Source of the DNA: Desulfobacterales bacterium S7086C20
GTDB lineage: Bacteria > Desulfobacterota > Desulfobacteria > Desulfobacterales > C00003060
Assembly: GCA_001751075.1 (NCBI GenBank)
Contig: MAVP01000003.1
Coordinates: 1-41,467 of the forward strand
Reading direction: 5' to 3'
DNA length: 41,467 bases
Of the stretch, positions 10,422 to 29,579 are shown in pieces. Each line of letters begins with the position of its first letter. Position 1 is the first letter of the stretch. Made by a program: the position numbers and the translations under genes. A model generated the notes under the pieces. It saw nothing but the letters and a program-made list of their open reading frames with translations. It was not told the origin of the DNA and did not search any database.

Positions 10422-11231
10422 ATGAAAACAAAGATATTGGGACATCTGAAAAGAGAATCAAGGATGGTCATAGGTTTGACCATCCTTGTATATATAACCC
10501 TCGTTTCGCTTGAAACAGGTCATAGCGCCCAGGAGTTTCCGAAACCTAGAGGCCTTGTCAACGATTTTGCAAATGTAGTCTCCCCTCAACATGAACAAAA
10601 ATTGGTTCAAATTACCAAAGAACTTCTGGAAAAGACAGGTGTGTCTGTCGTTGTGGTGGTTGTGCCTGACATTGGCGGTGAAGACTATAATGAATATGCT
10701 ACTCGCCTTTATGCTGACTGGGGCATAGGAAAAAAGGGGAAGGATCAAGGGGTCCTTATCTTTGTTACCGTCAAAGAGCGCAAGATGCGTATTGAAATAG
10801 GTTATGGGCTTGAAGGGCTAATCCCCGACGGCATGGCGGGTGAGATCCGTGACAGATATATGGTTCCGTATCTGAAGCAGGACCGTTTCGGTGAGGGGCT
10901 TTTGAATGGTACCTTGGTGATCTCACAAATTATTGCCAAGGATGCCGGCATAAGCATGTCCAGCAAAAGCCCCCGCAGGAAAGTTTCAAAGAAAACGTCC
11001 GGTTATTCAAGTTTATTGTTTTTATTGATTTTTCTTGGACTCGCTTTTCTTGGCGGAAGAAGAAGGGGTGGCCTGTTTCCCCTGTTGCTTATTATGGCTA
11101 TGGGACGCGGTGGATATGGGGCGGGTTACAGCAGGGGCGGCTTCGGAGGAAGTTTCGGAGGTTTTGGTGGTGGTTTCGGAGGTTTTGGAGGGGGCTTAAG
11201 TGGTGGAGGTGGAGCCGGTGGAGGGTTTTAA
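10422..11231 (+). CDS. TPM domain (YgcG-like) membrane protein
   Basis: VNDFANV, WGIGKKGKDQGVL, RIEIGYGLEG, TM helix, Gly-rich tail. Confidence 0.9.
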   Translation: MKTKILGHLKRESRMVIGLTILVYITLVSLETGHSAQEFPKPRGLVNDFANVVSPQHEQKLVQITKELLEKTGVSVVVVVVPDIGGEDYNEYATRLYADWGIGKKGKDQGVLIFVTVKERKMRIEIGYGLEGLIPDGMAGEIRDRYMVPYLKQDRFGEGLLNGTLVISQIIAKDAGISMSSKSPRRKVSKKTSGYSSLLFLLIFLGLAFLGGRRRGGLFPLLLIMAMGRGGYGAGYSRGGFGGSFGGFGGGFGGFGGGLSGGGGAGGGF

Positions 11232-11244
11232 AGGAGAATAGCTT

Positions 11245-11982
11245 ATGGCGCGGGTACCAAAAGATCCAAGGGACATATTCCCTAGTATTGTTGATGATTA
11301 TAAGGGAGTCTTTGGTGATGGCCTTGTTTCGATAATCGTCTACGGGAGTACGGCGTGTGGCGAGTATGTTGCCGGTACGTCGGATATCAATCTCATGATC
11401 GTAGTCTCTGAGGATAAGATCGATTCCCTTGAGCAGGCATTTGGAGTCATTAAAAAGTGGAGAAAACATAATGTAGCTACTCCTTTGCTCTTGACGGAAG
11501 ATTATGTGAGGACATCGCTTGATGTCTTTCCTATTGAATATCTGAATTTCCAAAATTGCCATGAAGTGGTGTATGGGAAGGACATCCTAGATGAACTCAC
11601 CTTCGATCCATATCTGTTGAGACTGCAGTGTGAAAGGGAAATTAAGGGCAAATTGCTGTTGCTTCGAGAAGGTTTTCTGGAAACAAGGGGAAAAGGGAGA
11701 TATATCCAGGAGTTGATTTCGGATTCACTTCATGCCTTCATTGCCATTTTCAATGGGCTCCTCCATCTTAAGGGCAAGGAGCTGCCCCGGAATGGACGTG
11801 ATGTCGTCACGGAAATTTGTGCGACTTTTGGTTTGGATTTGGTCGTTTTTGAAAGACTTCTTGACATCAAGGCGAAAAGGATTAAGCCTTCCGCCAAAGA
11901 GCTGACCGAGCTTTTCAAATCTTACCTGAAAGAGGTTCGCAGGTTGTGGAAGGTTGTCGATATTCTGGAAATAGGGACCTAG
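11245..11982 (+). CDS. Nucleotidyltransferase-fold hypothetical protein
   Basis: VYGSTACGEY..SDINL (GS..D motif), DVFPIEY. Confidence 0.7.
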   Translation: MARVPKDPRDIFPSIVDDYKGVFGDGLVSIIVYGSTACGEYVAGTSDINLMIVVSEDKIDSLEQAFGVIKKWRKHNVATPLLLTEDYVRTSLDVFPIEYLNFQNCHEVVYGKDILDELTFDPYLLRLQCEREIKGKLLLLREGFLETRGKGRYIQELISDSLHAFIAIFNGLLHLKGKELPRNGRDVVTEICATFGLDLVVFERLLDIKAKRIKPSAKELTELFKSYLKEVRRLWKVVDILEIGT

Positions 11983-12027
11983 GCATTTGAAGCCGATTTC
12001 AAGGTCTTCGTCTCATAGCATTAAAAT

Positions 12028-12134
12028 TGACGGTTTCGTAAAAAGTTTGATTTTGCTCTTTTCGTGCACGATTCCGGATCTCTTGCCAGAATCGTGCATT
12101 GTTATTCGCAGAATGACTTTTTACGAGTCAATCA
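12028..12134. repeat. Palindromic miniature element, family A, copy 2 (internally deleted)
   Basis: Same ends and outer arms as 10111-10325, with the central ~110 bp missing; AAAATT on both sides. Confidence 0.8.
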
Positions 12135-12151
12135 AAATTGGAGGCATCTAA

Positions 12152-12727
12152 ATGACAAAAGGACAGAAAATCGGACTGATTGTTATAGCGGTTATTATAC
12201 TTGCGTTGGTTATCCCCTATTCATACTTGAAAGGGACGTATAACAGCCTTGTTCAAATGGATGAGACGGTAAAGGGGGCGTGGGCACAGGTTGAAAATCA
12301 GCTTCAACGTCGCTACGACTTGATACCAAACTATGTAGAGACGGTAAAAGGGTATGCCAAGCATGAAAAAGAGGTCTTTGTAAAAGTTACACAGGCGCGT
12401 TCCAGGGTGGCTGGCGCCGGTACAGTCCAGGAAAAAATGGAGGCAAACAACAGATTGTCTTCAGCCTTGGCACGACTTTTGATAGTAGTCGAAAGGTACC
12501 CTCAATTAAAGGCGAATACCAATTTTATTCGACTCCAAGATGAACTGGCTGGTACGGAAAACAGGATTGCCGTGGAGCGTCGCCGTTTCAACGAATCGGT
12601 AAGGGTATATAATACAAAAGTCCGGAGCTTCCCGACCAATTTTGTTGCAAATATGTTTGGTTTTGAGAAGGCTGTCTTTTTTGAGGTCCCAAAGGAAAAG
12701 CAGGAGGTTCCCAAGATAAAGTTTTAA
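12152..12727 (+). CDS. lemA: LemA family protein
   Basis: YNSLV..E..WAQVENQLQRRYDLIPN, ERYPQLKAN, ENRIAVERRRFN. Confidence 0.93.
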   Translation: MTKGQKIGLIVIAVIILALVIPYSYLKGTYNSLVQMDETVKGAWAQVENQLQRRYDLIPNYVETVKGYAKHEKEVFVKVTQARSRVAGAGTVQEKMEANNRLSSALARLLIVVERYPQLKANTNFIRLQDELAGTENRIAVERRRFNESVRVYNTKVRSFPTNFVANMFGFEKAVFFEVPKEKQEVPKIKF

Positions 12728-16596: not shown

Positions 16597-19500
16597 ATGC
16601 CCACACCACTCATGGAGACACTCAGAAAACAGACCAAAGAGGAAACCATTTCTTACGAGTATACATACTGTCTTGACGGTGGTGAACTGGCTATTGCCGT
16701 AGGTAAAGACGAGAACCAGTACCGTATCAGTCTGATCACAGACATTGACGGACCGCTGATCCTTCATTGGGGTATTTCAAAACATTCTCGGCAGCAATGG
16801 GTCTTGCCGCCGGCCGACATACGTCCTAGTGGAACAGTTGTGCTTCAAGATAAGGCCGCCGAGACGACCTTTGCTGAAGAGGGTGATTACAGAAAAGTTC
16901 AACTAAACCTCGCGGGGAAAGATGCGCCAATCGGCATTCCCTTTGTCGTCAGGCAGGTTGGTACTGATCGTTGGATAAAAGATAATGGGCGCAATTTTTA
17001 TATTCCCGTTGCTGTTTCCCGGCAATACAAAGAGACTTTTAAAGACGTTGCTGTGGCAGGACTTGCCGATACGATCATTGAAAGGGAAATGGGTCCGCAC
17101 TCATGGACACTGATGCATCGCTTCAATCTGTGTTATGACCTGCTGGAAAGTATTGGAGGCAATGTTGAAGGATTAGCGCTGATCTATGTGTGGCTCCGAT
17201 TTTCCGCCTTGAGGCAACTGGACTGGCAGCGCAACTACAACACCCAACCAAGAGAATTGAGCCATGCCCAGGACCGTCTGACCCTTAAACTTGCTGAGCA
17301 GTATCAAAGACAACCACAAGGCCGAGAGTTTATCCGGCTGATACTTACTACCTTGGGCCGAGGCGGTGAAGGGCAGCGTGTGCGTGATGAGGTCTTAAAC
17401 ATTATGCACCGTCATCACATCAAGGAGATTTCAGGCCATTTCATGGAAGAATGGCACCAAAAACTGCATAACAACACCACACCTGATGATGTTGTTATCT
17501 GTGAGGCGTACCTGGCATTCCTCAAAGCAAACGGCAACCTTGACATCTTTTACAAGACTCTCGAGGCGGGTGGTGTTACCAGAAAACGATTGAAGGGCTT
17601 TGAGCGATCCATTGTGTCAGACCCTGATTTCATTGCCCACCTGAAAGAGGCATTGATCCACGATTTTGAACATTTCCTGGGTATCCTCAAAAGCGTTCAT
17701 AGCGGTACTGATCTTGGGACTGCCATCCATGCCGCCAGGCACCTGTTCGATAAAAAACTCCACGATCTAATGGATTTTATATGGGCCCATCGCGATGATC
17801 CGGGAACCCGGGCAGGGATACTCGTTGCAAAGATCGTTGAGGGGCGCCAACACTTGAAGATGCAACTAGAGTACGCCGGAACGAATGGCCGAGATGCGCT
17901 CTTCGTCGACCTTGCACTTGATGATTTCTTGCGTGTTGTCATAGAACGCAATCTTTGCCATGATATCAGCGGAGATGAATTAGCAGAACTGATCACAATG
18001 GTGACAGAAGACCTACTCATCACAGAAGAAAACGACGAACTTGAATACTCTTTGGGCCACTGGAAACGCCTCGGGCAGAGGCCCCGCTTTAAACAGCAGT
18101 GGTCGCTTGAAGCCAAGGCCGTGCTGGACCGTGTTGGGCGTGCCTTAGGTGCTGTAATAGACCGCTATTACCAGATCCTTCAGCCAATGGCGGAATTTCT
18201 AGGCACAGCCTTTGAGGCAGAACCTTGGATTATTACACTATTCAGTGAAGAAGTTGTGCGTGGCAGTCCCGCGTTTGCGCTGGCCGCACTCTTGCGTCAG
18301 ATTGATCCTGTATTGCGGAAAAGCGCCGAGCTTGGCAATTGGCAGGTAATCAGCCCCGGGCAGACAACGGGCATAGTCGATGTAGTCTCTAATATGCAGT
18401 CCATTCAGAGTAAAGACTTTTCGCAAAACACCGTCATCATTGCCGACATTATTACAGGGGCCGAGGAGATTCCGGCAAACATCAGTGCTATCATCACTCC
18501 GGATACAACCGATATCGTATCCCACGTGGCGATTCGTGCCAGAAATGCAAAAGTTCTTTTTGCTACGTGTTACGATAGTGATACAATTGCTCAGTTGAAG
18601 TCCATCAGAGGACACTGGCTCCAGCTAAGCGTGAATGTGGCCGGTGACGTGGTGTTTGAGGAAAGCCGGGAAGCGGATGCAAAAGATGCGAAGCCGCTTT
18701 CTGAGCAAAGCGCTATCCCACACCTCCTATCCCGGCCCGGATTTACCGATTATGCCGTAACCGCCGGTGAGTTTAATGAGGGAAACGTTGGGGGCAAATC
18801 CCACAACTTGAAACAGCTACATGGCAAAGTGCCGAATTGGATTCATTTGCCTGCTTCAGTGGCACTTCCCTTCGGGGTTTTCGAAGAGGTTCTTTTCCGA
18901 GAGGAAAACAGGAAGGTTTCCAAACAATACGAAGCACTGATTCATGATATCGATAAGGAAAAGGAGAATGCAAGGGATGAGATCCTTGGTAAACTCCGAA
19001 AAACTGTTATGTCCCTTGCCGCGCCCGAGGAATTGGTCTCTTGCCTTCGTGAAGCAATGTATGAAGCAAGGCTTCCTTGGCCGGAAAACTGGGAAGGCGC
19101 CTGGAGGGGCATCAAAGGGGTGTGGGCCTCAAAGTGGAATGACAGAGCACTTTTGAGCCGAAAGATCAGAGGAATACCTCATGACGATCTCTTCATGGCT
19201 GTCCTCATCCAAGAGGTGGTTGAGGCTGAATACAGTTTCGTGATTCATACTGTCAATCCTTTGACAGGTGACGGAAAAGAGGTGTATGCAGAGGTCGTTT
19301 CCGGCCTTGGAGAAACCTTGGTGGGCAATTACCCGGGAAGGGCTCTGAGCTTTACCTGTAACAAGGATGGGCTTAAACCAAAGATCAAGGCCTTTCCGAG
19401 CAAGAGCATTGGTCTTTTCGGTAGAGGGTTGATTTTCCGCTCTGATTCTAATGGAGAAGATCTCGCCGATTATGCGGGGGCTGGCCTGTATGACAGCATT

Positions 19501-19716
19501 ATGCTGGAGCCTCCGGTCAAGACCCGCTTGGATTATACCGAGGAATTGCTCATACAAGATGAAGATTTTAGAAACGAATTCATGGTTTCAGTTGCCACTA
19601 TTGGCGCCATAATTGAGGAGGCCTTGGGCTTTCCGCAAGATATCGAGGGAGCATATTGCAAGGGGCAATACCATGTAGTGCAAACGCGCCCACAGGTTGG
19701 AACTGCAAATGAGTAA
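16597..19716 (+). CDS. Alpha-glucan, water dikinase (GWD1/R1-like) with a CBM45-like N-terminus
   Basis: WQRNYNTQPRELSHAQ, GQRVRDEVL, MEEWHQKLHNNTTPDDVVICEAYL, phospho-His SHVAIRARN (His codon 18523), C-terminal ATP domain VWASKWNDRA, FRSDSNGEDLADYAGAGLYDS, QDIEG, VVQTRPQV. Confidence 0.9.
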   Translation: MPTPLMETLRKQTKEETISYEYTYCLDGGELAIAVGKDENQYRISLITDIDGPLILHWGISKHSRQQWVLPPADIRPSGTVVLQDKAAETTFAEEGDYRKVQLNLAGKDAPIGIPFVVRQVGTDRWIKDNGRNFYIPVAVSRQYKETFKDVAVAGLADTIIEREMGPHSWTLMHRFNLCYDLLESIGGNVEGLALIYVWLRFSALRQLDWQRNYNTQPRELSHAQDRLTLKLAEQYQRQPQGREFIRLILTTLGRGGEGQRVRDEVLNIMHRHHIKEISGHFMEEWHQKLHNNTTPDDVVICEAYLAFLKANGNLDIFYKTLEAGGVTRKRLKGFERSIVSDPDFIAHLKEALIHDFEHFLGILKSVHSGTDLGTAIHAARHLFDKKLHDLMDFIWAHRDDPGTRAGILVAKIVEGRQHLKMQLEYAGTNGRDALFVDLALDDFLRVVIERNLCHDISGDELAELITMVTEDLLITEENDELEYSLGHWKRLGQRPRFKQQWSLEAKAVLDRVGRALGAVIDRYYQILQPMAEFLGTAFEAEPWIITLFSEEVVRGSPAFALAALLRQIDPVLRKSAELGNWQVISPGQTTGIVDVVSNMQSIQSKDFSQNTVIIADIITGAEEIPANISAIITPDTTDIVSHVAIRARNAKVLFATCYDSDTIAQLKSIRGHWLQLSVNVAGDVVFEESREADAKDAKPLSEQSAIPHLLSRPGFTDYAVTAGEFNEGNVGGKSHNLKQLHGKVPNWIHLPASVALPFGVFEEVLFREENRKVSKQYEALIHDIDKEKENARDEILGKLRKTVMSLAAPEELVSCLREAMYEARLPWPENWEGAWRGIKGVWASKWNDRALLSRKIRGIPHDDLFMAVLIQEVVEAEYSFVIHTVNPLTGDGKEVYAEVVSGLGETLVGNYPGRALSFTCNKDGLKPKIKAFPSKSIGLFGRGLIFRSDSNGEDLADYAGAGLYDSIMLEPPVKTRLDYTEELLIQDEDFRNEFMVSVATIGAIIEEALGFPQDIEGAYCKGQYHVVQTRPQVGTANE

Positions 19717-22700
19717 TCACCGCCGAATCAGGATCGGCAATCAGAGCGCTTTTTCAGCGGAAAGGGTAATTCAACCCTTCGAGTTTGCCGTAGCAAGTGG
19801 CTTCGATGCCTTTGAATGGCTTCCGGACAAAAAGGAATCCGGAGCTGGTTGGCAAGAATGCGATATTGATGCTCAAACACGCCGTTACATAAGAAACACA
19901 GCCCGTCAACACGACATCAGACTGTCTGTTCATGCCCCGTGGCACGTCAATCCTTCAGAACCAGACCTCAGCGAGCAGCTTCTTAAAACCGTACAGTTTG
20001 CTCAGGACATCGAAGCATCGCTTTTAAATGTCCACCTCTTTACTGAAAATGGGACTGAGGCCTATGTTCGAGGCATCATCCCGTTTATTAAGTCTCTCAG
20101 AAAAACCGGAAGCAGGCTCTCAATCGAGAATACCCCCCTGACAGCCCCCGGGGACTTGAACGCATTTTTTGCTACACTACAACACCTTGCCCCCGCCGAG
20201 GCAACACAGACAGGGATGTGCCTCGACCTGGGACACGCCAATCTGTGTTCCGCCACCTTAAATGACTACATCAAGTTCATTGACCTTCTTGATCCTGACA
20301 TTCCCATCATTCATATTCATCTGCACGAAAACTACGGGGACCATGACAGTCACTTGACCCTGTTTACAGGGCCTTCCGGACAGGATGTCTCCGGCATCAA
20401 GGCCTTTTTAAAACTCATAAAAAAACGCCGGTTTTCAGGCAGTATCATCTTGGAACAGTGGCCCGAACCACCTAGTCTGCTAATTGAGGCCCGTAACAAC
20501 CTGAAAATCATGATCGGCAATTCGCCGCCGCCCCTTGTTGAACCCCGAAATGCCAACACAGAGGACTTTGTGAGTGTTATTGCCGAGGCAGACAGACAAC
20601 ACAGAAGTTGGAGAGAAAAACTTGCCTGGGTCCATGATTTTGTTGCCGAGAAAATCTCTTCTCATAACACGAGGCAACTTACTTACCTGATGATCTATCT
20701 GCGTTTTATCGGCACAGGCCAGGTTGCCTGCACCGAGGATGGCAAACACTACCGTCCTTCTCATCATGCCAAGATCGCCCGCGGAATCCACAATCGTCTG
20801 GCCGAGATAACTACTCCCGAAAATGTCTTTATCATCAGGAAGATCTATCCATGGCTGCCCTCGTATGAGAACCGCTTTGCTAATGCGGAACCACTCACAC
20901 GGATAAGAGATCTTGCCCACCGAAACGATATTTGCAAAGAACTCAAACAAGAAATAAAGCACACACTGCAAAATAAGCTGCACAGATGTGCCGGCCCGGA
21001 GGATCTTGCCACATCAGCAGCCTTGCTTAAAAGGATAACAGCCCCTAATGCAAATTACCCAAATGACTTTGTTAAAGAGTTTGTGAGATTCCATGAAGAA
21101 CTAGAGGAGTTTTTTAATGTCCATTCCTTGGAAGAGCAGCTTGAAGCCATCGCCTCCAATGCTCGGAAGGATGAAGATTCTACTACCTTCAAGTTGATAA
21201 GCGATTTCCTTAAAGCCAAGAAAAAGGCTGTTACGTCGGAAGAGTTGATAACTGCTTTTGAGCTTTTGACAACACTTCGTCGTCAATTTTTTAAAAAGTC
21301 TAAGATTGATACCAGCGCTCAGCAGCAAGGACTTCAACTGGCCGACATAAGATTGGAAGACTATGCTTTTGTTCTGTTGAGCCAATTGATCAATCACCTT
21401 GCCACTGCTGGAAAAGAAAACATGCAGTGGCCTATGGCGGGACACTGTTTAGGCTTGGCCATTTTGAACCTGCGCCTAAGCGGCTTGGACAGCTTCGAAT
21501 GTCGGGCCATAGAATCGGAATTAGAGCTTTGGCATGAAAGTTTTACACCCAAAAACCGTGAGCATGTTCTTCGTCTCAAGGCTACAATTGATCGTTGTCG
21601 AAGACTGGCAGAGAGATATTCAGACAAGATCCTTTCCCTGTTTCCCGAAAAGGTTCAAAGACTGGGCCGGGCCTTGGGTGTGGCCAAAGAAGCCATAAGG
21701 GTTTTTTCTGAGGCCGAGATTCGAAGCCATTTAGTCTTTCAAGTCTCAAGGCTTGTGGATCTTGTGTTGAAATCGATCCGCTCAGTTGCCTACCTCTCTC
21801 CGTGGGACGCTATCGTGTGCGAGAAAGTTTGTGGCCGTCTAGTCGAGACCCAATATCTTGACGATTTATCCGACCTCTCTGATGAACTGGTCGTGGTATT
21901 GCTTGAAAAAGCCCGGGGCGATGAAGAGCTATCTGCCGGCGTAGGAGGTATCGTCTTGGCCCACGAAATGGCGCATCTTTCTCACCTAGCGGTCCGGGCG
22001 CGGCAAGAAAAAGTAGCGCTAGCCGTGTGCGAAGACGCAAACCAATTTGGGGAGCTTAGAAACCTTGTCAATACACAGGTTGTCTTGGGAGTATCTCCTG
22101 AAGGTGTAGTGCTTGAAACCTCCTCAAATCATGGTATCGTAGAGGCAACTGACAGGAAAAGCAAGATTGGGCATGGGAACATTGATGTGGCTGATGTGCC
22201 TTTATCTTTTTCAGTCCCGTTGATCCCACTTAACGAAGTTACGCAGAAAACAGGGGGAAGTAAGGCATATGGAGCAAGACGCCTTGAAGAAATCTCACGC
22301 GTTCAGACCGCTGGGTTTGCAACACCTCCCGGAGTTGTGATTCCCTTTGGTGTGATGGAAGAGTCTCTGCACTTTTCGCCGGCCCTTAAAGAAGAGTACC
22401 AAGCCTTGGTCAACCAGCTAAACGACCTAGAACAAGATGATTTCTCAGAGGCCTTGGCAAGACTGCAACGTATCCATGACGAGCCTAGTGTTTCCCGCGA
22501 GATAGTCCGACTGGTGCAGAAAAAATTCCCGCATGACGCACGACTTATGGTGCGTTCAAGCGCCAACTGCGAGGACCTGGAAAGATTATCAGGGGCCGGG
22601 TTGTACGAATCAGTAGCAAACGTATCGCCATCTGAGCTATCTCAAGCAATATGTGAAGTCTGGAGATCCCTGTGGGCCAAGCGGGCGGTCATGAACAGGA

Positions 22701-23176
22701 AAAGGCATGGCATCCCGCATGATAGGGCTCATATGGCACTGCTCATCCAGCAGATGCTGGTTGCCGATCTTTCGTTCATCATCCACACGGTCAATCCCAT
22801 AGACCATAACACGAACGAGGCTTATGTCGAGCTAGCGGTGGGATTGGGAGAAACCTTGGCCTCCGGCAAGTCCCCGGGATGTCCATATCGAATGCTCTGC
22901 GACAAGAATACAGGGGCGGTCAGAATGCTGGCCTTTGCCAGCTTCAGCCAGGCCTTGTGGCCTGATCTTTCAGTGGATCTGAGAGCCGAAACGATAGACT
23001 ATTCCAAGATCAACCTAACAATAGATGAAGATTTCAGAAACCGTTTGGGGGGCCGCCTTGGAGCAATGAGTCGATTTGTGGAAAAGGCCCTGGGGGGACC
23101 TCAAGATATCGAGGGACTTGTGATTGATAGTAAGATCTATCTTGTCCAGGCGCGACCTCAACAAGATGTTTTGTAA
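19709..23176 (+). CDS. Phosphoglucan, water dikinase (PWD/GWD3-like) fused to an N-terminal AP-endonuclease-2/xylose-isomerase-like TIM barrel
   Basis: SWREKL, CTEDGKHYRPSHHA, PLTRIRDLAHRNDI, KQEIKHTLQNKLHRCAGPEDL, HLSHLAVRARQEKV (His codon 21983), VRSSANCEDL..SGAGLYES, VQARPQ; ATG 19709 overlaps the GWD stop. Confidence 0.9.
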   Translation: MSNHRRIRIGNQSAFSAERVIQPFEFAVASGFDAFEWLPDKKESGAGWQECDIDAQTRRYIRNTARQHDIRLSVHAPWHVNPSEPDLSEQLLKTVQFAQDIEASLLNVHLFTENGTEAYVRGIIPFIKSLRKTGSRLSIENTPLTAPGDLNAFFATLQHLAPAEATQTGMCLDLGHANLCSATLNDYIKFIDLLDPDIPIIHIHLHENYGDHDSHLTLFTGPSGQDVSGIKAFLKLIKKRRFSGSIILEQWPEPPSLLIEARNNLKIMIGNSPPPLVEPRNANTEDFVSVIAEADRQHRSWREKLAWVHDFVAEKISSHNTRQLTYLMIYLRFIGTGQVACTEDGKHYRPSHHAKIARGIHNRLAEITTPENVFIIRKIYPWLPSYENRFANAEPLTRIRDLAHRNDICKELKQEIKHTLQNKLHRCAGPEDLATSAALLKRITAPNANYPNDFVKEFVRFHEELEEFFNVHSLEEQLEAIASNARKDEDSTTFKLISDFLKAKKKAVTSEELITAFELLTTLRRQFFKKSKIDTSAQQQGLQLADIRLEDYAFVLLSQLINHLATAGKENMQWPMAGHCLGLAILNLRLSGLDSFECRAIESELELWHESFTPKNREHVLRLKATIDRCRRLAERYSDKILSLFPEKVQRLGRALGVAKEAIRVFSEAEIRSHLVFQVSRLVDLVLKSIRSVAYLSPWDAIVCEKVCGRLVETQYLDDLSDLSDELVVVLLEKARGDEELSAGVGGIVLAHEMAHLSHLAVRARQEKVALAVCEDANQFGELRNLVNTQVVLGVSPEGVVLETSSNHGIVEATDRKSKIGHGNIDVADVPLSFSVPLIPLNEVTQKTGGSKAYGARRLEEISRVQTAGFATPPGVVIPFGVMEESLHFSPALKEEYQALVNQLNDLEQDDFSEALARLQRIHDEPSVSREIVRLVQKKFPHDARLMVRSSANCEDLERLSGAGLYESVANVSPSELSQAICEVWRSLWAKRAVMNRKRHGIPHDRAHMALLIQQMLVADLSFIIHTVNPIDHNTNEAYVELAVGLGETLASGKSPGCPYRMLCDKNTGAVRMLAFASFSQALWPDLSVDLRAETIDYSKINLTIDEDFRNRLGGRLGAMSRFVEKALGGPQDIEGLVIDSKIYLVQARPQQDVL

Positions 23177-24221
23177 AACCATAGCCACAGTTTCCCAATC
23201 TCCTCGCTTGCTGGGACTCTTTCAGAAAAGGATTGATGGTGATGATGCACTGCTCGATTTGGCCAGGGTCCGTTTTAATGAAATGGGTCTTGGAGCAGAG
23301 TTTTATGCTGAAACAACAGAGGAACTTGACCACTTACTGAAATTCAGACCTGCGGCTGAAACCCCTCTGGTGGCCCATTTGCGGCGTGGAATTAATCTGC
23401 TCGAGAAAAAGGATTTGAGCTTAGTCATTGATTTTGCAGAAAGATTCAAAGGCCGGCTCTTTGGCTTTGTCGTCCATGATCAACCCGAAATCTCCACCCG
23501 CTTTGACGATTACTTGTCTGCTTTAAACAGGCTTGAAGCTGAATACAACAAGATCCAGGGGAGCCCCTATCTTTTCATAGAATATGCTGTGGGCCTGGCC
23601 CCTTCTCTTTTTGTCCATTTCGCAGAAACCATGAAAGGTCTTCAGCGAATAAGCTGTTGCATTGACATAGGTCATATCGGCCTATGGCAGGCGAGAACTG
23701 CTTATAGCAAAGAGCATCCCGGAAAAGATGTATGTAGCCTAACAACAGACGATTCTTCTTTGCCGGAAGTAATCGAAGACGTTCAAAGTGCGGTTCGTTC
23801 AGCACTGGATACAGTGTTAAGCATAGTTCGGGTGCTAGGCCGTTTAGAAAAACCGTTGCATTTCCATCTTCATGATGGCCATCCTCTTTCAATTACGAGT
23901 CCCTTTGGAATTTCCGACCACCTGAGTTTTCTGGATAAAATTCCCGTTCCCTTTGAATACAAGGGAAAAAGGTCTCTTGATCCCATGTTTGGTCCTTCAG
24001 GTCTTTCAAGTATCGTTTCTGAGTCATTGAAGCACCTCGGTCCAGAGCAAGTCTCTTTTTCACTTGAGATTCATCCTGCACAGGGAAGGCTTCCCCTTGA
24101 AGATGCTTCTTACCTTTTCGATCACTGGGAGGAAAAGACGAATGCAGAAAGGATGAACCACTGGCTTTGGGTGCTTTCTCAAAATCAGCAGCTTGTGCAG
24201 AACTCATTGGAAGGAAAATAA
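23166..24221 (+). CDS. Metal-binding TIM-barrel protein (AP endonuclease 2/sugar-phosphate isomerase-like), function unknown
   Basis: FIEY, CIDIGH, HFHLHDGH, SDH, SLEIH ligand pattern; ATG overlaps the PWD end. Confidence 0.7.
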   Translation: MFCKTIATVSQSPRLLGLFQKRIDGDDALLDLARVRFNEMGLGAEFYAETTEELDHLLKFRPAAETPLVAHLRRGINLLEKKDLSLVIDFAERFKGRLFGFVVHDQPEISTRFDDYLSALNRLEAEYNKIQGSPYLFIEYAVGLAPSLFVHFAETMKGLQRISCCIDIGHIGLWQARTAYSKEHPGKDVCSLTTDDSSLPEVIEDVQSAVRSALDTVLSIVRVLGRLEKPLHFHLHDGHPLSITSPFGISDHLSFLDKIPVPFEYKGKRSLDPMFGPSGLSSIVSESLKHLGPEQVSFSLEIHPAQGRLPLEDASYLFDHWEEKTNAERMNHWLWVLSQNQQLVQNSLEGK

Positions 24222-24223
24222 CT

Positions 24224-25522
24224 GTGAAACCAACGGCAAAGATGATCATCTATAATTTGTTCCCTCTCTTGGCAGGCAAGTTTACCGATTGGGAAAAGCA
24301 TTTGTTAAGGGCATCTGAGATGGGCTTCAATTGGGTTTTTGTGAATCCGATTCAGCGTCCCGGAAAATCGGGGAGCCTTTACTCTATTGCCGACTATTAT
24401 GCCTTCAACCCGTTGCTGGTTGACAAAGAGAGCCGAAAGAAACCGCAACAGCAGGTAAAAGATGTTGCCGGGTCTGCGGAAAAACTGGGCCTCAGCTTGA
24501 TGGTGGATCTTGTAATCAATCACTGCGCTGCTGATTCGGAGCTGATCAAGTCTCACCCGAAATGGTTTCAGTGGAAGGACAGCGATCATGTGGCCCACCC
24601 TTCCTGTGACGAAAACGGAGAAAGGGTGGTCTGGAAAGACCTTGCGAAGTTTGATCATGACAACTCGCAGGACAAGGAAGGACTTTTTAGATTTCTATCT
24701 GATGTGGTGATGTACCTGATAGATCTAGGATTTAAGGGTTTCCGTTGTGACGCAGCGTATCAAGTCCCCAGGGCCGTGTGGGAAAGGCTCATAAGTGAGA
24801 TACGAAAGAGACATCCTGAGGTGAAGTTCTTTGCGGAAACACTCGGGTGTTCACCAGACCAAACCATACAAACAGCAGGAGCTGGTTTTGACTACATATT
24901 TAACAGCTCAAAGTGGTGGGATTTTGAAGCCCAGTGGTTGATGAAACAATATGCCCTTACGCGTGAGATTGCGCCTTCCATAGGTTTTCCTGAAAGCCAC
25001 GATACCGTGAGGCTCTATGATGAACTCGATGGCAACATGGCTGGGATGAAACAACGCTATCTATTTTCAGCACTTTTCTCTTCAGGGGTTATGATGCCCA
25101 TGGGGTTTGAATACGGCTTCAGGAGAAAACCCCATGTAGTAAAGACAAGGCCACAAGACTGGGAAACAACCGATGTTGATATGACGCATTTCATAAAAGC
25201 CGTAAACAAGCTTAAGGCAGGGCATGCAATCTTTCAGGAAGAAGCGCTAACCGAAATACTGTACTACAACAATCCGAATCTTCTCCTCTTGTGGAAGGCC
25301 TCTACTACCACTCAAGAAGAATGTCTCATTATCGTCAACAAGGATATTTCCAACAAACAGCATTTTCATGTAGAAAGTCTGCAAGAATTTGTTCAGGCAG
25401 GGGCTCCACTTGTTGATCTCTCTCCAGAATATCAAATGAACTATATTCCCAGCCCCTTTTCGTACGATTTCCGGCCAGGACAGGGTATAGTCTTGATGAC
25501 TTTAAGGGATTTGCCGAAGTAG
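24224..25522 (+). CDS. GH13 alpha-amylase-family glycoside hydrolase/transferase
   Basis: DLVINH, GFRCDAAY (nucleophile D), FFAETL (acid E), ESHDT; GGAAGGA RBS before GTG 24224. Confidence 0.85.
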   Translation: MKPTAKMIIYNLFPLLAGKFTDWEKHLLRASEMGFNWVFVNPIQRPGKSGSLYSIADYYAFNPLLVDKESRKKPQQQVKDVAGSAEKLGLSLMVDLVINHCAADSELIKSHPKWFQWKDSDHVAHPSCDENGERVVWKDLAKFDHDNSQDKEGLFRFLSDVVMYLIDLGFKGFRCDAAYQVPRAVWERLISEIRKRHPEVKFFAETLGCSPDQTIQTAGAGFDYIFNSSKWWDFEAQWLMKQYALTREIAPSIGFPESHDTVRLYDELDGNMAGMKQRYLFSALFSSGVMMPMGFEYGFRRKPHVVKTRPQDWETTDVDMTHFIKAVNKLKAGHAIFQEEALTEILYYNNPNLLLLWKASTTTQEECLIIVNKDISNKQHFHVESLQEFVQAGAPLVDLSPEYQMNYIPSPFSYDFRPGQGIVLMTLRDLPK

Positions 25523-25671: not shown

Positions 25672-26433
25672 ATGCATCTTGTTGCTCTTCACGTGTTTGG
25701 TTTGTATCTTCTCAATAAACTTAACTTAATAACCTGGGGCAATAAGGCCATTAACCGACTCAGGCCGAACGGGTGGGTGTTACCAGTGTATTGTTGTGCA
25801 ACAAGTGAAACCGCTGACAAAGCACACAGCCTCATAGATTCTTGCATCGAAACAAGAGTTGTTCTTTTGCCCGTTGACCCGTACCTGGTTCATGTTTACT
25901 GGGAGGTCAACTCTAAGGAAATTGATAGAGCAAGATATTTGCTGGGTGACACATACGAATCTTCGCAGGCTTTACTCAGGTTCTATGATGTTACCAATGT
26001 TTTCTTTGACGGTACAAATGCCAACAGCTCGTTTGATGTGAAAATCGACCTTGAATCGAAGAGCTGGTATGTTCGCCTCTGGGTCCCAGACAAGTCATAC
26101 GTTGTTGAACTGGGCTATAGGACCACCGACGGCAGTTTCTTTTCGTTGGCACAATCAAACACCGCGCGCACACCCCGTGCCTGGCCTGTACCAAGGGTGG
26201 ATGACACCTACTCGCTCGTTGATCGACGTGCCGACGATGGCCTGGCAACCACCGAAGTCCATACAGCACCTCATGGCGGTGACAAGAAGCAATCCAATCG
26301 GCGAGAGTTAACCTCCCAAACGTGGGAAACCGAGCCTGAACCCAAAGATGAGAGTTTAACACAGATGAATGAGGAGCAATTTTCCTTTGGTATGTCATCA
26401 TATCGTATCTCATCAATACGGTGCTTGCGATGA
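25672..26433 (+). CDS. DUF4912 domain protein (start uncertain)
   Basis: ETRVVLLPVDP..HVYWEV, LRFYDVT, WYV, YVVELGY, SNTARTPR; usual neighbour of GH57 branching enzymes. Confidence 0.75.
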   Translation: MHLVALHVFGLYLLNKLNLITWGNKAINRLRPNGWVLPVYCCATSETADKAHSLIDSCIETRVVLLPVDPYLVHVYWEVNSKEIDRARYLLGDTYESSQALLRFYDVTNVFFDGTNANSSFDVKIDLESKSWYVRLWVPDKSYVVELGYRTTDGSFFSLAQSNTARTPRAWPVPRVDDTYSLVDRRADDGLATTEVHTAPHGGDKKQSNRRELTSQTWETEPEPKDESLTQMNEEQFSFGMSSYRISSIRCLR

Positions 26434-26485
26434 TCAGCTCTGAAGTTTCACGATTTCCTACAAGTCCTTTTCGCGGGGTTTGAAA

Positions 26486-28081
26486 ATGGAAAAGGCTTAT
26501 CTGGCTATTGTGCTTCATGCGCATCTTCCTTATGTCAGACATCCTGAACACGTAGATTCTCTTGAGGAGAACTGGCTGTATGAGGCTATCACCGATACTT
26601 ACATCCCTCTGCTTTTCGTGCTGGAAGGTTGTGTAAAAGATGGAATTGACTTTCGCCTGACTCTGTCACTTACCCCCACCCTTGCCTCTATGCTCGCAGA
26701 CCCGTTGTTGCAGAGCAGATATTTGGAAAGACTGGAAAGGATGATAGAGTTGGCCCAAAAGGAGATTAAACGCACTAGATCCCAGCCCGAATTTAACGCC
26801 TTGGCCCTTATGTACAACACCCGTCTTGGGCAGGTGCATGAGGCTTTCGTCAATCGTTATGAACAAAACTTGCTCCAGGCCTTCAGGTCCCTACAAGAAC
26901 GCGGAAAAGTGGAAATCATGGCCTGCGCCGCCACGCATGCTTATCTCCCCCTGCTTTCAGTAAACAGGTCCGCTGTTAGGGGACAGATTGGGATCGGGGT
27001 TGAACATTACAGGGAAGTATTCGGGAAAAGCCCCGAGGGCTTCTGGTTGCCGGAATGCGGTTATTATCCTGGAGTCGACGAATTACTCGACGAATATGGC
27101 ATACGATATACTGTACTTGAGACTCACGGTATCACGCGGGGCAACCCAAGACCTGAGTTTGGCGTCAATGCCCCTGTTTTTTGTTCCTCAGGAGTTGCTG
27201 CCTTTGGGCGAGACCCTAAATCCTCGGCCCAAGTTTGGAGTTCTGAAATCGGTTATCCAGGGGATTATGATTACAGGGAATTCTATCGTGACATTGCTTA
27301 CGATCTTGACCTCGGATATGTCGCGCCCTATATTCACAGGGATGGGATTCGAGTAGATACCGGCTTTAAGTATTTCCGTATTACCGGCAAGGGCAATCAC
27401 AAGGACACCTACATCCCAGAACAAGCAGAAAAGAAGGCCGAGCTTCACGCAGAAGATTTTATATCCAAGCGCTTCAAACAGGTTGAATATCTTGGCTCCA
27501 TTATGGATCGCAAACCAATCATTGTGGCCCCCTTTGACGCTGAGCTATTCGGCCATTGGTGGCATGAAGGACCATTGTGGCTGGACCATGTTATCCGCAA
27601 ACTTCATTCGGCACAGGCGGGAATCAGGCTTGCTACGCTTTCTGAATACCTCGAACAATATCCCATAAATCAGGTTTCAACACCTTCCTATTCCAGTTGG
27701 GGACACCATGGGTTCAATGAGACCTGGCTCAACGGGAAAAACGAATGGATCTATCCTTGTCTCCATAAAAGCGCACTGCAAATGGAAAGGCTGGCGAACA
27801 ATTATCCTCAGGCCAAAGGCTTGACATTGAGGGCGCTTAAACAAGCAGCACGGGAGTTGTTGCTGGCACAGTCAAGCGACTGGGCTTTTATGATCAATGC
27901 AGGCACTATGGCAGAATACGCTACTGAGCGAACCAAAAGGCATATCTCCCGCTTGGCAAGACTAGCACAAGACGTTGAGTCAGACAGTATCGACCAAGTC
28001 TGGCTGTCCAAATTGGAAACCCGGGACAACATCTTTCCTGGAATAGACTACCGCTTCTTTTGTGGAAGTTCTCGTTTATGA
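26486..28081 (+). CDS. GH57 1,4-alpha-glucan branching enzyme (DUF1957 C-terminus)
   Basis: HAHLPYV, FWLPECGY, PFDAELFGHWWHEG, RELLLAQSSDWAF. Confidence 0.9.
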   Translation: MEKAYLAIVLHAHLPYVRHPEHVDSLEENWLYEAITDTYIPLLFVLEGCVKDGIDFRLTLSLTPTLASMLADPLLQSRYLERLERMIELAQKEIKRTRSQPEFNALALMYNTRLGQVHEAFVNRYEQNLLQAFRSLQERGKVEIMACAATHAYLPLLSVNRSAVRGQIGIGVEHYREVFGKSPEGFWLPECGYYPGVDELLDEYGIRYTVLETHGITRGNPRPEFGVNAPVFCSSGVAAFGRDPKSSAQVWSSEIGYPGDYDYREFYRDIAYDLDLGYVAPYIHRDGIRVDTGFKYFRITGKGNHKDTYIPEQAEKKAELHAEDFISKRFKQVEYLGSIMDRKPIIVAPFDAELFGHWWHEGPLWLDHVIRKLHSAQAGIRLATLSEYLEQYPINQVSTPSYSSWGHHGFNETWLNGKNEWIYPCLHKSALQMERLANNYPQAKGLTLRALKQAARELLLAQSSDWAFMINAGTMAEYATERTKRHISRLARLAQDVESDSIDQVWLSKLETRDNIFPGIDYRFFCGSSRL

Positions 28082-28112: not shown

Positions 28113-29579
28113 ATGTTTATCGTTATGATCACCCCGGAATGTGCCCCTGTTGCCAAAGTCGGTGGCCTGGGAGATGTCGTACAGGGGCTTTCCCGCGAAC
28201 TGGACCTCAGGGGAAATGCGGTAGAGATTATTCTGCCCAAGTATGATTGTATGCGCTACGATCGCATCTGGGGGCTTGAAAAGACATTCGGAGATTTATG
28301 TGTTCCCTACCATGACCAGCATGTTCATTGCGATGTCTATTTCGGCTTTGTAGACGGCCTGAAATGCTTTTTCATTGAACCGCATTCTTTCAAGAATTTT
28401 TTCGACCGGCACACCTTCTACGGGCACGATGATGACGTCGAACGCTTTGCCTTCTTTTCCAGAGCTGCCCTGGAGTTCATGCTCAAGACAAACAAGCATC
28501 CCGACATTATCCACTGTCACGATTGGCAGACGGCGCTGGCGCCGGTCCTTCTCTTTGATATATATAAACACATGGGAATGACCCACCCGAGAGTCTGCTA
28601 TACGTTGCACAATCTCAAGCATCAGGGTGTCACCGGGGAATATGTGCTGCGCCAAGTCGGCCTGGATCCTGCTCATTACATGACACAGGACAAGCTTCAA
28701 GACAACTTCAACCACGGTGCTGTAAACCTGATGAAGGGAGGAATCGTTTATTCAAACTTTATTACCACAGTCTCCCCTCGCTATGCCGACGAAATAAAAC
28801 ATTCTGACATGGGATGCGGCTTGCAACATACACTCCATGACCATGCCGCAAAATTTGGTGGAGTCTTAAACGGCATTGATTACAACGTTTGGAATCCAGA
28901 AACCGACCCCTATATTGCCTGTCAATATGGAGTGGAAACGGTCGGTGACAAATACAAAAACAAAGAGGCCCTACGCCAAAGGCTCTGGTTAGGAAAGGGT
29001 TTCAAGCCGATTGTTGCTGTGGTAAGTCGTCTCGACCATCAAAAAGGGGTGGGCCTGATACGGCACGCGATTTCTTATGCCCTTGAAAACTCCTGTCAGT
29101 TTATCCTTTTAGGATCAAGTCCTGATCCCGTCACCAACAACGATTTCTGTGCCCTGAAGCAATGGCTGAATGACAACCCAGATTGTCACCTCGAGATTTC
29201 ATATGATGAGGAGCTGGCACACCTCATATATGCAGGGGCTGACATGATTCTCATACCCAGCGCCTTTGAACCTTGCGGCCTGACACAAATGATCGCCATG
29301 AAATATGGAACTCTCCCCATTGTTCGAAACATTGGCGGATTAGCAGACACAGTGTCTGATGCGGATTATTCGCACAGGCCGTATCACGAACGTAACGGCT
29401 ATGTTTTTAATGATTTTGATAACCAAGGGCTCCAGTCTGCAATGAGCCGGGCCATTGGCCTTTGGAACGTATACCCAGAGTATTTCCGGGAGCTTATGGT
29501 AAATGCAATGAGGTACGACTACTCCTGGAACCATCCTGGACAGCACTATCTCAATATTTACAATCACATTAAGGAGTAG
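28113..29579 (+). CDS. glgA: GT5 glycogen/starch synthase, KVGGL (SSIII/SSIV/GlgA2-like) type
   Basis: PECAPVAKVGGLGDV, ILPKYDCM, HCHDWQTA, TTVSP, NGID, FEPCGLTQMIAM, GGLADTV. Confidence 0.93.
   Translation: MFIVMITPECAPVAKVGGLGDVVQGLSRELDLRGNAVEIILPKYDCMRYDRIWGLEKTFGDLCVPYHDQHVHCDVYFGFVDGLKCFFIEPHSFKNFFDRHTFYGHDDDVERFAFFSRAALEFMLKTNKHPDIIHCHDWQTALAPVLLFDIYKHMGMTHPRVCYTLHNLKHQGVTGEYVLRQVGLDPAHYMTQDKLQDNFNHGAVNLMKGGIVYSNFITTVSPRYADEIKHSDMGCGLQHTLHDHAAKFGGVLNGIDYNVWNPETDPYIACQYGVETVGDKYKNKEALRQRLWLGKGFKPIVAVVSRLDHQKGVGLIRHAISYALENSCQFILLGSSPDPVTNNDFCALKQWLNDNPDCHLEISYDEELAHLIYAGADMILIPSAFEPCGLTQMIAMKYGTLPIVRNIGGLADTVSDADYSHRPYHERNGYVFNDFDNQGLQSAMSRAIGLWNVYPEYFRELMVNAMRYDYSWNHPGQHYLNIYNHIKE

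Follow-up and report, generated by a model that had tools for sequence, protein, structure and literature searches.

A bacterial glucan dikinase fused to a predicted metal-dependent TIM barrel, a candidate phosphoglucan esterase

The window analysed in this study is a stretch of 41,467 nucleotides corresponding to contig C3 (MAVP01000003.1, positions 1 to 41,467 of the forward strand) of Desulfobacterales bacterium S7086C20, whose 2.65-Mb genome is assembled in 241 contigs and is 95.7% complete. It carries a run of co-directional genes, some with overlapping stops and starts, and the second gene of this run (19709..23176, + strand) encodes a protein in which a TIM barrel, a central domain, a phospho-histidine domain and an ATP-binding domain are fused. 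The open reading frame (ORF) is unbroken from TTG 19697 or ATG 19709 to position 23176, giving 1159 or 1155 residues, respectively. Residue numbers here count from ATG 19709, where the gene overlaps with the stop codon (19714-19716) of the gene before it. TTG 19697 could serve as the start instead, and the Pfam coordinates of the domains refer to the protein beginning there. As the genes are long, intron-free, closely packed and often overlapping, in a genome of this small size, the fusion gene is bacterial and not eukaryotic. The comparison with eukaryotic architectures drawn in the initial annotation of this DNA can therefore be kept as an analogy only.

The first 270 residues (19709..20518) constitute the barrel, with a match to AP_endonuc_2 (PF01261) at residues 28-261 (nucleotides 19778-20479; 5.3e-19, 69.3 bits against a cut-off of 31.1). 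The GWD1-type phospho-histidine domain (21803..22129) was recognized as GWD1_pHisD (PF22973) at residues 703-810 (3.8e-20, 77.2 bits), and the AMP/ATP-binding domain (22256..23164) as PPDK_N (PF01326) at residues 854-1156 (5.7e-33, 115 bits against a cut-off of 27). These domain matches are far above chance. Within the phospho-histidine domain, His759 (21983-21985) in the motif LSHLAVRARQ was invariant in 42 of 42 PWD-like sequences (PWD, phosphoglucan, water dikinase), and its place in the motif makes it the probable phospho-acceptor and candidate catalytic residue. The proposal that one gene combines a TIM barrel with a complete PWD core and an intact His is thus borne out by the ORF, the Pfam domains and the conservation of His759. 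Plant PWD has an N-terminal carbohydrate-binding module, CBM20, and needs prior phosphorylation of its substrate by GWD. No match to CBM_20 was obtained with Pfam in the fusion protein at E≤0.01, PF01261 being found at the N-terminus instead, and the barrel does occupy the position held by CBM20 in plant PWD, as had been suggested.

Between the barrel and the phospho-histidine domain lies a central domain (residues 271-700, 20519..21808). Even at E≤10 it matched no Pfam family other than DUF3800 at 0.034, and BLAST across loci indicated that it is conserved among PWD-like homologues. By position it corresponds to the region called 'central domain' in potato GWD1, which lies between the CBM45s and the histidine domain in the excerpt consulted of a 2026 paper (PMC13553574). 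A sequence search with the dikinase part matched no solved GWD structure in the PDB; the PPDK_N domain aligned just with the ATP-binding domains of chains named 'phosphoenolpyruvate synthase' (best 8.2e-20).

The fusion recurs well beyond this genome. The junction between barrel and central domain, near 20519, is bridged without indels by contigs from other sequencing runs (X2 record 3, 20319-21991; X3 record 11, 20448-20682; X4 record 18, 20344-20568), which belong to three coded studies, one of them possibly the window's own campaign. Proteins of 635-2022 residues sharing the barrel numbered 369 at E≤1e-3. Among the best 120 of these, 93 carried PF01261, PF22973 and PF01326, while 21 carried PF01261 only, two PF01261 and PF22973, and four PF01261 and GH13 domains. 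When 1.84 billion cluster representatives were searched exhaustively by HMMER with only the barrel as query, 364 clusters passed E≤1e-3 and 102 passed E≤1e-30; in the best 150 of the 364, 37 were proteins of 1095-1311 residues with an N-terminal barrel, and the remaining clusters listed included free barrels of about 270-350 residues or forms of about 740 residues. In contigs taken from one genome per species, at least 445 of 599 pattern matches encoded a relative. For the best 80 species loci we compared the window proteins by BLAST with all stop-to-stop ORFs and classified the frame carrying the barrel. By their record titles, these loci represent Desulfobacterota, Nitrospirota/Thermodesulfovibrionia, Verrucomicrobiota, Nitrospinota, Planctomycetota (Scalindua, Anammoxibacter, Gemmataceae) and Gammaproteobacteria (Parabeggiatoa, Thiotrichales, Chromatiales), and in 45 of the 80 the barrel and PWD-like sequence share one frame. 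Uniqueness to this assembly, considered in the initial annotation, is contradicted by these homologues and by the loci from several phyla; together with the bridging contigs they also rule out an assembly artefact as the source of the fusion. Barrel-PWD proteins are already present in databases as 'TIM barrel protein' or 'phosphoglucan, water dikinase', so that the reading given here is new and the sequences are not.

We then considered what kind of barrel this is. The AlphaFold2 (AF2) model, built from 22 sequences with a pLDDT of 92.7, comprises eight strand-helix units, a (beta/alpha)8 fold. The ligand motifs quoted in the initial annotation were all found, namely VHAP (H75), SIEN (E140), CLDLGHAN (D173, H176), HIHLHENYGDHDSH (H202/204/206, D213, H215) and ILEQW (E249). 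With H109 they give the set H75, H109, E140, D173, H176, H204 (with H202/H206), D213, H215 and E249, or H-H-E-D-H-H-D-H-E, whose members lie in the model at the C-terminal ends of strands 3-8 or in the loop after strand 7. H75, H109, E140, D173, H176, H202, H204, H206, D213, H215 and E249 were invariant in 81 of 81 barrels, and so were Q12, E36, W37, D40, R58, N141, C171, N178, N185, E207, N208, W251 and P252. In endonuclease IV (EndoIV) from C. pneumoniae, the excerpt consulted of PMC13113976 gives the three-metal ligands as His75, His115, Glu153, Asp187, His190, His224/229, Asp237, His239 and Glu269. All nine of these positions are matched by the barrel, in the same order and with similar spacing. 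An 'EndoIV/xylose-isomerase-like' set had been proposed; it can now be specified as the full nine-ligand EndoIV type and not merely the subset found in sugar epimerases. The barrel would accordingly be expected to bind metal, as judged from these residues.

The nearest families point in the same direction. When the family profile was compared with all PDB sequences, MJ1311 from Methanocaldococcus jannaschii (3WQO) was best at 2.7e-17, with endonucleases IV and TTHB071 next (2e-6 to 4e-4) and only weak matches to sugar epimerases (UlaE 0.017, D-tagatose 3-epimerases 0.35). The only NCBIfam families matched by the barrel were CbiR (NF041277; 4.5e-12, 46 bits against 105) and DNase IV (NF002198; 1.9e-4, 21.2 bits against 244), and no epimerase or isomerase family was matched at E≤0.01. 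In contrast, a generic PF01261 paralogue of the host (L083) matched eight sugar epimerase, isomerase or dehydratase families. The third PF01261 protein of the host is a true CbiR (267.6 bits against 105), encoded on contig C80 (C80:2877-3677; L084:378-1178, - strand). The barrel itself was rejected as a true CbiR on the grounds of its score, the presence of this real CbiR on C80 and its own neighbours, which are glucan genes. The initial annotation had stated that some members of the superfamily are phosphoesterases, and it is with such members, CbiR and DNase IV, that the barrel has its nearest named relatives. Sequence comparison thus points to a place for the barrel in the phosphoesterase branch of the superfamily, outside EndoIV proper and outside CbiR.

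These three relatives resemble the barrel to different extents. MJ1311 is the closest solved structure by both profile and fold (240 residues aligned with a root-mean-square deviation (r.m.s.d.) of 2.5), and in the printed alignment it shares the motifs VHAP / vvvH / ENmP / DiGHAN / HvHaHDN..D.H; it is an archaeal protein that stands alone, is 22% identical to the barrel and has no known function. The authors of that structure reportedly noted conserved EndoIV zinc ligands and no DNA groove. The EndoIV family, with members such as E. coli 1QTW and the C. pneumoniae enzyme, has the same fold (Z 22.8-23.0, r.m.s.d. 2.9-3.0 over 243-245 residues) and the same nine-residue pattern. The barrel differs from EndoIV in being 18% identical, far below the DNase IV cut-off, and in its genomic setting in glucan metabolism. 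CbiR, the best-scoring named family, is a non-DNA phosphoesterase of the same superfamily; in the excerpt consulted of PMC7733943, the Akkermansia protein is an EDTA-sensitive cobamide-remodelling phosphodiesterase whose activity is abolished by mutation of conserved His/Asp/Glu residues. The barrel is under the CbiR cut-off, and no cobamide genes surround it.

Concerning the genomic context, the barrel is coupled to glucan dikinases. Directly upstream of the fusion gene lies a gene for a GWD-like alpha-glucan dikinase of 1039 residues (16597..19716, + strand), with an Ig_N_CWD1 N-terminal domain (PF23166, 3.2e-27), a phospho-histidine domain (PF22973, 4.9e-36) and a PPDK_N ATP domain (PF01326, 1e-25). 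His643 in its motif VSH643VAIRARN was invariant in 58 of 58 sequences. A GWD-like gene stood directly upstream of the barrel, on the same strand and with a gap of <700 nucleotides, in 49 of the 62 loci with at least 3.5 kb of upstream sequence. We also surveyed 201 genomes sampled from the phylum of the window, including that of the host. A GWD-type His domain was found in six of the 201, the host's included. Strong barrel orthologues (338-398 bits) were present in five genomes, all among these six and all within about 2 kb of the dikinase; four of the dikinase-positive genomes belong to one family and are not independent events. The barrel profile found no orthologue in the 195 dikinase-negative genomes of the phylum. 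The other 29 matches to the profile scored 58-76 bits and are paralogues, many of them open frames of about 267 residues like the CbiR of the host. Where a barrel had no adjacent dikinase (five genomes), a dikinase was encoded elsewhere in four of the five. As a separate observation, frames of about 267 residues that match the barrel profile weakly occur widely in the phylum; they are probably orthologues of CbiR.

The initial annotation had considered the barrel as part of a PWD homologue, but it is not an accessory of PWD in particular. Among the 80 loci, a barrel with a full PWD-like protein was found in 35 (one cut by a contig end), and in two more the frame of about 1490 residues also included ORF3, the gene that follows the fusion in the window (L039:9998-14467 and L042:3250-7782; compare protein P0063, 1490 residues). 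A barrel with the central domain only was found in eight loci (four cut by contig ends, some of the others with split frames, for example L053 and L081), and a barrel fused to GH13 in two (L022:9998-12184 and L060:9971-12154). In the remaining 33 (three cut) the barrel was a gene of its own, usually located directly after the GWD-like gene. Many of these clusters had no PWD-like gene at all and consisted of GWD-like, barrel, GH13 and further genes (for example L008, L013 and L074), while others carried barrel and PWD-like sequence as separate genes (L023, L030, L032 and L043). The fusions of a barrel to the N-terminus of GH13, about 728 residues in length, occur in some Thermodesulfovibrionales and Nitrospiraceae (proteins P0061, P0076, P0097 and P0098), and are named 'starch synthase (maltosyl-transferring)' by JGI.

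In one lineage, proteins of 689-709 residues consist of barrel and central domain and end exactly at the boundary between central and phospho-histidine domains (L005:3509-5593 and L017:9992-12061; P0008, P0011, P0019, P0026 and P0030). No kinase-like sequence followed this gene in the remaining 0.8-0.9 kb of the L005 or L017 contig. The persistence of barrel and central domain without kinase domains suggests that the central domain may serve as a glucan-holding platform for the barrel, independent of kinase activity. Since barrel and central domain persist in these proteins and the free-standing barrels keep their ligands, the barrel would function as an independent enzyme rather than as a decayed binding module. 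On a maximum-likelihood tree of the 81 barrels (quick IQ-TREE), fused and free forms interleave, and the state of being fused, free or GH13-fused needs 17 changes. For the PWD-fused label alone, at least eight changes are forced by well-supported branches, and the row nearest to the window's barrel, L003, is a free barrel. The barrel is a single orthologous mobile module whose primary tie is to the GWD-like gene, its link with the PWD-like gene being facultative. Separately from these forms, a giant protein of 5557 residues in the representative library (P0213) contains a segment (residues 3782-3981) 35% identical to the barrel (E 2.3e-34).

The initial annotation had passed over the next gene, ORF3 (23166..24221, + strand; 351 residues from ATG 23166), which overlaps the stop of the fusion gene and encodes a second, highly divergent TIM barrel. 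ORF3 is invisible to Pfam even at E≤10 and had no NCBIfam match, and its profile found no relative by sequence in the PDB. It aligned weakly with the profile of the first barrel (hhalign 73%, 3.1e-5) over VVHD...IEY...CIDIGH. The AF2 model (27 sequences, pLDDT 91.6) is a TIM barrel whose best Foldseek match was an African swine fever virus (ASFV) AP endonuclease (3e-6), followed by ketose epimerases, EndoIV and a class II aldolase; with TM scores as low as 0.4-0.5, these matches are weak and reach only to the superfamily. A ligand set similar to that of the first barrel was present: H71, H104, D105, E139, D167, H170, H232, H234, D237, H239, D251, H252, E301 and H303 were invariant in 38 of 38 sequences and lie in the models at the same strand ends. 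Clustered at 90%, the family comprises 1838 members of 193-615 residues. In the best 120 of these, no Pfam domain covered ORF3, and P0358 carried GH13 domains; among the matches listed, homologues were named 'hypothetical protein' wherever the source named them. On the basis of the models, ORF3 looks like an undescribed branch of the xylose-isomerase-like/EndoIV superfamily. Its distribution follows that of the PWD-like dikinase: in the 56 loci that cover 6.5 kb or more from the start of the barrel, both were present in 33, neither in 18, only PWD in four and only ORF3 in one. ORF3 is thus a gene that tracks the PWD-like dikinase. Fusions of ORF3 to GH13, of about 800-870 residues, were found in L037, L052, L053, L063, L067 and L075.

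Downstream of ORF3, the run continues on the + strand with a GH13-type alpha-glucan enzyme (24167..25522; hDGE_amylase / Alpha-amylase in Pfam, start codon uncertain), a DUF4912 protein (25672..26433; Pfam 1e-34, syntenic in many loci), a GH57 1,4-alpha-glucan branching enzyme (26480..28081; PF03065 and PF09210, NCBIfam 1e-102, below the equivalog cut-off) and the glycogen synthase GlgA (28113..29579; NF001905, 880.8 bits against a cut-off of 560). The genes from the GWD-like dikinase through the barrel-PWD-like dikinase, ORF3, GH13, DUF4912 and the GH57 branching enzyme to GlgA form a conserved operon. Consensus scans for promoters and terminators gave about as many matches as chance would (15 where 15.8 were expected, and 17 where 15.1 were) and are uninformative on transcription units. 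No RNA run was listed as carrying this stretch. Glycogen phosphorylase is encoded elsewhere in the genome. The DSPc phosphatase domain (PF00782) was not matched anywhere in this 95.7%-complete genome.

Three further observations were made on the region. The DUF4912 gene lies immediately upstream of the GH57 branching enzyme gene in the window and in many loci (L003, L004, L007, L010 and L013), a synteny that suggests a role for DUF4912 in glucan metabolism. Upstream of the cluster, at 10422-12727 (+ strand), are genes for a TPM-domain phosphatase, a possible nucleotidyltransferase and LemA, with no apparent link to it. DNA near-identical to 19000-24500 (29-90% of sampled words; shares under 0.2 were not counted) occurs in metagenome runs of marine sediment, cold seeps and seawater that belong to several coded studies.

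Taking these features together, we propose that the fusion protein may be a bifunctional enzyme of a bacterial system for phosphorylating storage glucan. The ATP domain would phosphorylate His759, and the His domain would pass the beta-phosphate to alpha-glucan held by the central domain. Within the xylose-isomerase-like TIM-barrel superfamily, the barrel would fall in the endonuclease-IV/CbiR/MJ1311 branch and work as an active phosphoesterase with a multinuclear metal site, co-opted to hydrolyse phosphate esters of this glucan or of phospho-maltodextrins that are freed from it. In our estimate the barrel has roughly an even chance of being such a phosphoglucan or phospho-dextrin esterase, an "eraser"; both the esterase chemistry and the glucan substrate are deduced from the sequence relationships and the gene context described above. 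ORF3 would be a second candidate eraser, and with the GWD-like dikinase included, the operon may encode two candidate writers and two candidate erasers. Both dikinases would phosphorylate the storage glucan made by the adjacent GlgA and GH57 enzymes, and the GH13 enzyme, together with the glycogen phosphorylase encoded elsewhere, would degrade that glucan. In chloroplasts, SEX4 and LSF2 remove phosphate esters that block exo-acting degradation, and the two metal barrels may clear such esters here, the first barrel filling the role of the dual-specificity phosphatase (DSP)-type glucan phosphatases SEX4, LSF2 and laforin. Fusions of the kinds barrel-PWD, barrel-GH13, PWD-ORF3 and ORF3-GH13 are what is expected of enzymes acting in turn on one polymer. 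A division of labour, in which the barrel would serve the GWD-like dikinase at C6 and ORF3 the PWD-like dikinase at C3, can be read from the co-occurrence pattern alone and is speculative.

Several points weigh against assigning an eraser function to the barrel. Its scores for CbiR and DNase IV are far under the family cut-offs. In VIA, in which rows within 1 Z count as ties, MJ1311 had a Z score of 26.1, the ASFV AP endonuclease one of 24.7, D-tagatose 3-epimerase 23.5 and E. coli EndoIV 23.0; fold comparison, by VIA or by Foldseek, cannot tell a phosphoesterase from a sugar epimerase. No activity is known for MJ1311, the closest solved relative, which the PDB lists under the title 'D-tagatose 3-epimerase-like'. 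In chemical terms, the characterised relatives cut phosphodiesters, whereas the products of GWD and PWD are monoesters. EndoIV also has 3'-phosphatase activity. The excerpt consulted of PMC2958311 describes 3'-diesterase activity in the endonuclease IV family. If kinase and phosphatase share a chain, a futile cycle would result unless the two have different position specificities or are subject to regulation. In the phylum survey, the dikinase-positive genome G156 (96% complete) showed no barrel, and G003, a metagenome-assembled genome, has a barrel and showed no dikinase. Finally, the designation 'PWD' rather than 'GWD' for the dikinase part is provisional. It draws on the JGI automatic name of many homologues ('phosphoglucan, water dikinase'), on the sequence SHLxVRARQ, which we take to be a PWD-type motif, and on the nearest named ESM-Atlas cluster for residues 271-1155. 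That cluster is eukaryotic, mainly streptophyte; all its members have PPDK_N and pHisD, and 12% have CBM_20. Its score of 0.94 is a lead only.

Among the other explanations, the one that fares best is a phosphoesterase with another substrate, which we regard as unlikely. The barrel could be a phosphodiesterase acting on a diester or cyclic phosphate of the glucan, or on nucleotides or nucleotide-sugars (for example ADP-glucose or an adenylated intermediate), or it could be a phosphatase of small sugar phosphates, for example maltose-1-phosphate or glucose-6-phosphate, which supply or drain the pathway. CbiR, the sole characterised relative not acting on DNA, is a phosphodiesterase and the EndoIV enzymes are diesterases, as far as the excerpts cited above describe them, and the JGI name of the barrel-GH13 fusions, if correct, would imply maltose-1-phosphate. 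Against this, the linkage of the barrel is strict with glucan dikinases but does not extend to GlgA or GH13 as a whole, it is fused to the central domain of a dikinase, and the GH13 enzyme of the window matched no GlgE model in NCBIfam.

Slightly less probable again is a non-hydrolytic isomerase, epimerase or dehydratase acting on glucan-derived sugars or glucosyl residues. Membership in PF01261 agrees with this, as do Foldseek and VIA, which place ketose 3-epimerases and UlaE level with the endonucleases, and some homologues are named 'sugar phosphate isomerase/epimerase' by JGI. However, EndoIV-type proteins score several orders of magnitude better than epimerases with the sequence profile, and the NCBIfam comparison separates the barrel from the paralogue L083, as described above. 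Ketose epimerases use a four-ligand Glu-Asp-His-Glu set, beyond which the barrel has five extra invariant ligands (H75, H109, H176, D213 and H215).

We consider it improbable that the barrel is a non-catalytic reader which replaces CBM20 and steers the PWD-like kinase to pre-phosphorylated glucan. The position of the barrel, the absence of any detected CBM in the fusion protein and the dependence of plant PWD on prior phosphorylation by GWD would suit such a role. Nevertheless, a mere reader would not account for the invariance of each putative catalytic or metal residue in all 81 barrels, nor for the occurrence of the same orthologue alone in clusters without a PWD-like gene or fused to GH13, with fused and free forms interleaved on the tree. 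That the barrel is a DNA-repair endonuclease IV fused by chance to a dikinase is hardly credible: in spite of the nine-ligand set and of the lack of a canonical nfo among the three PF01261 matches of the genome, its DNase IV equivalog score is 21.2 bits against 244, its setting is constantly a glucan operon and its fusion partners are glucan enzymes, and its orthologues are absent from the 195 dikinase-negative genomes, which is unexpected for a housekeeping repair enzyme.

Returning to the barrel as a candidate glucan phosphatase, the system resembles known ones in part. Like plant PWD/GWD3 (EC 2.7.9.5) and GWD1 (EC 2.7.9.4), the fusion protein has the order central domain, phospho-His domain and PPDK_N with a conserved His, and as in the plant relay of GWD and then PWD, a GWD-like partner gene lies upstream. 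It differs in having a predicted metal-dependent TIM barrel in place of CBM20, and in being bacterial and part of an operon. With SEX4, LSF2 and laforin the barrel would share only a role, the removal of C6/C3 phosphate paired with GWD/PWD; their Cys-based DSP fold and chemistry are unrelated to a metal TIM barrel.

Reversible phosphorylation of glucan, by GWD/PWD with SEX4/LSF2 or by way of laforin, has been treated as a eukaryotic mechanism of starch and glycogen metabolism. In the excerpt consulted of a 2026 review, laforin is described as missing in prokaryotes and the machinery for prokaryotic glycogen phosphorylation as unknown, and a 2026 preprint, likewise consulted in part, calls GWD a hallmark of starch that is never found in glycogen accumulators. 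Some bacterial GWD sequences appear in the legend of a tree figure of a 2018 paper (PMC6260743) as possible recipients of gene transfer; in the parts consulted of open-access papers and preprints, this legend was the only mention of bacterial GWD homologues found. Searches of open-access papers and preprints, supplements excluded, yielded no account of this fusion, nor of any glucan phosphatase from bacteria. What may be new here is a form of reversible glucan phosphorylation in which the candidate eraser is non-homologous and the domain architecture is novel.

The operon points to a plant-like reversible phosphorylation of storage glucan in bacteria, as far as gene content can indicate it, and offers candidate genes for both halves of such a cycle. 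We tentatively raise, as possible though doubtful, a complete plant-like write/erase cycle in several phyla, in which GWD- and PWD-like proteins would be the writers and both barrels position-specific glucan phosphatases. With the same reserve, its carriers might include Desulfobacterota, Nitrospirota, Planctomycetota including anammox bacteria, Verrucomicrobiota and sulfur-oxidising Gammaproteobacteria. The two barrels, one of which belongs to a family without a Pfam or NCBIfam model, are candidates for a new class of dephosphorylating enzyme, and all parts of the system are of a size suited to soluble enzymes and can be tested by heterologous expression. If such a cycle exists, the barrels would be a convergent, non-homologous counterpart of SEX4, LSF2 and laforin and a new catalytic class of glucan phosphatase, and the bacteria that run it would store a poorly soluble, starch-like glucan. 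This would bear on the carbon reserves of sediment and anammox bacteria, on the origin of the eukaryotic dikinases and on tools for tailoring starch phosphate.

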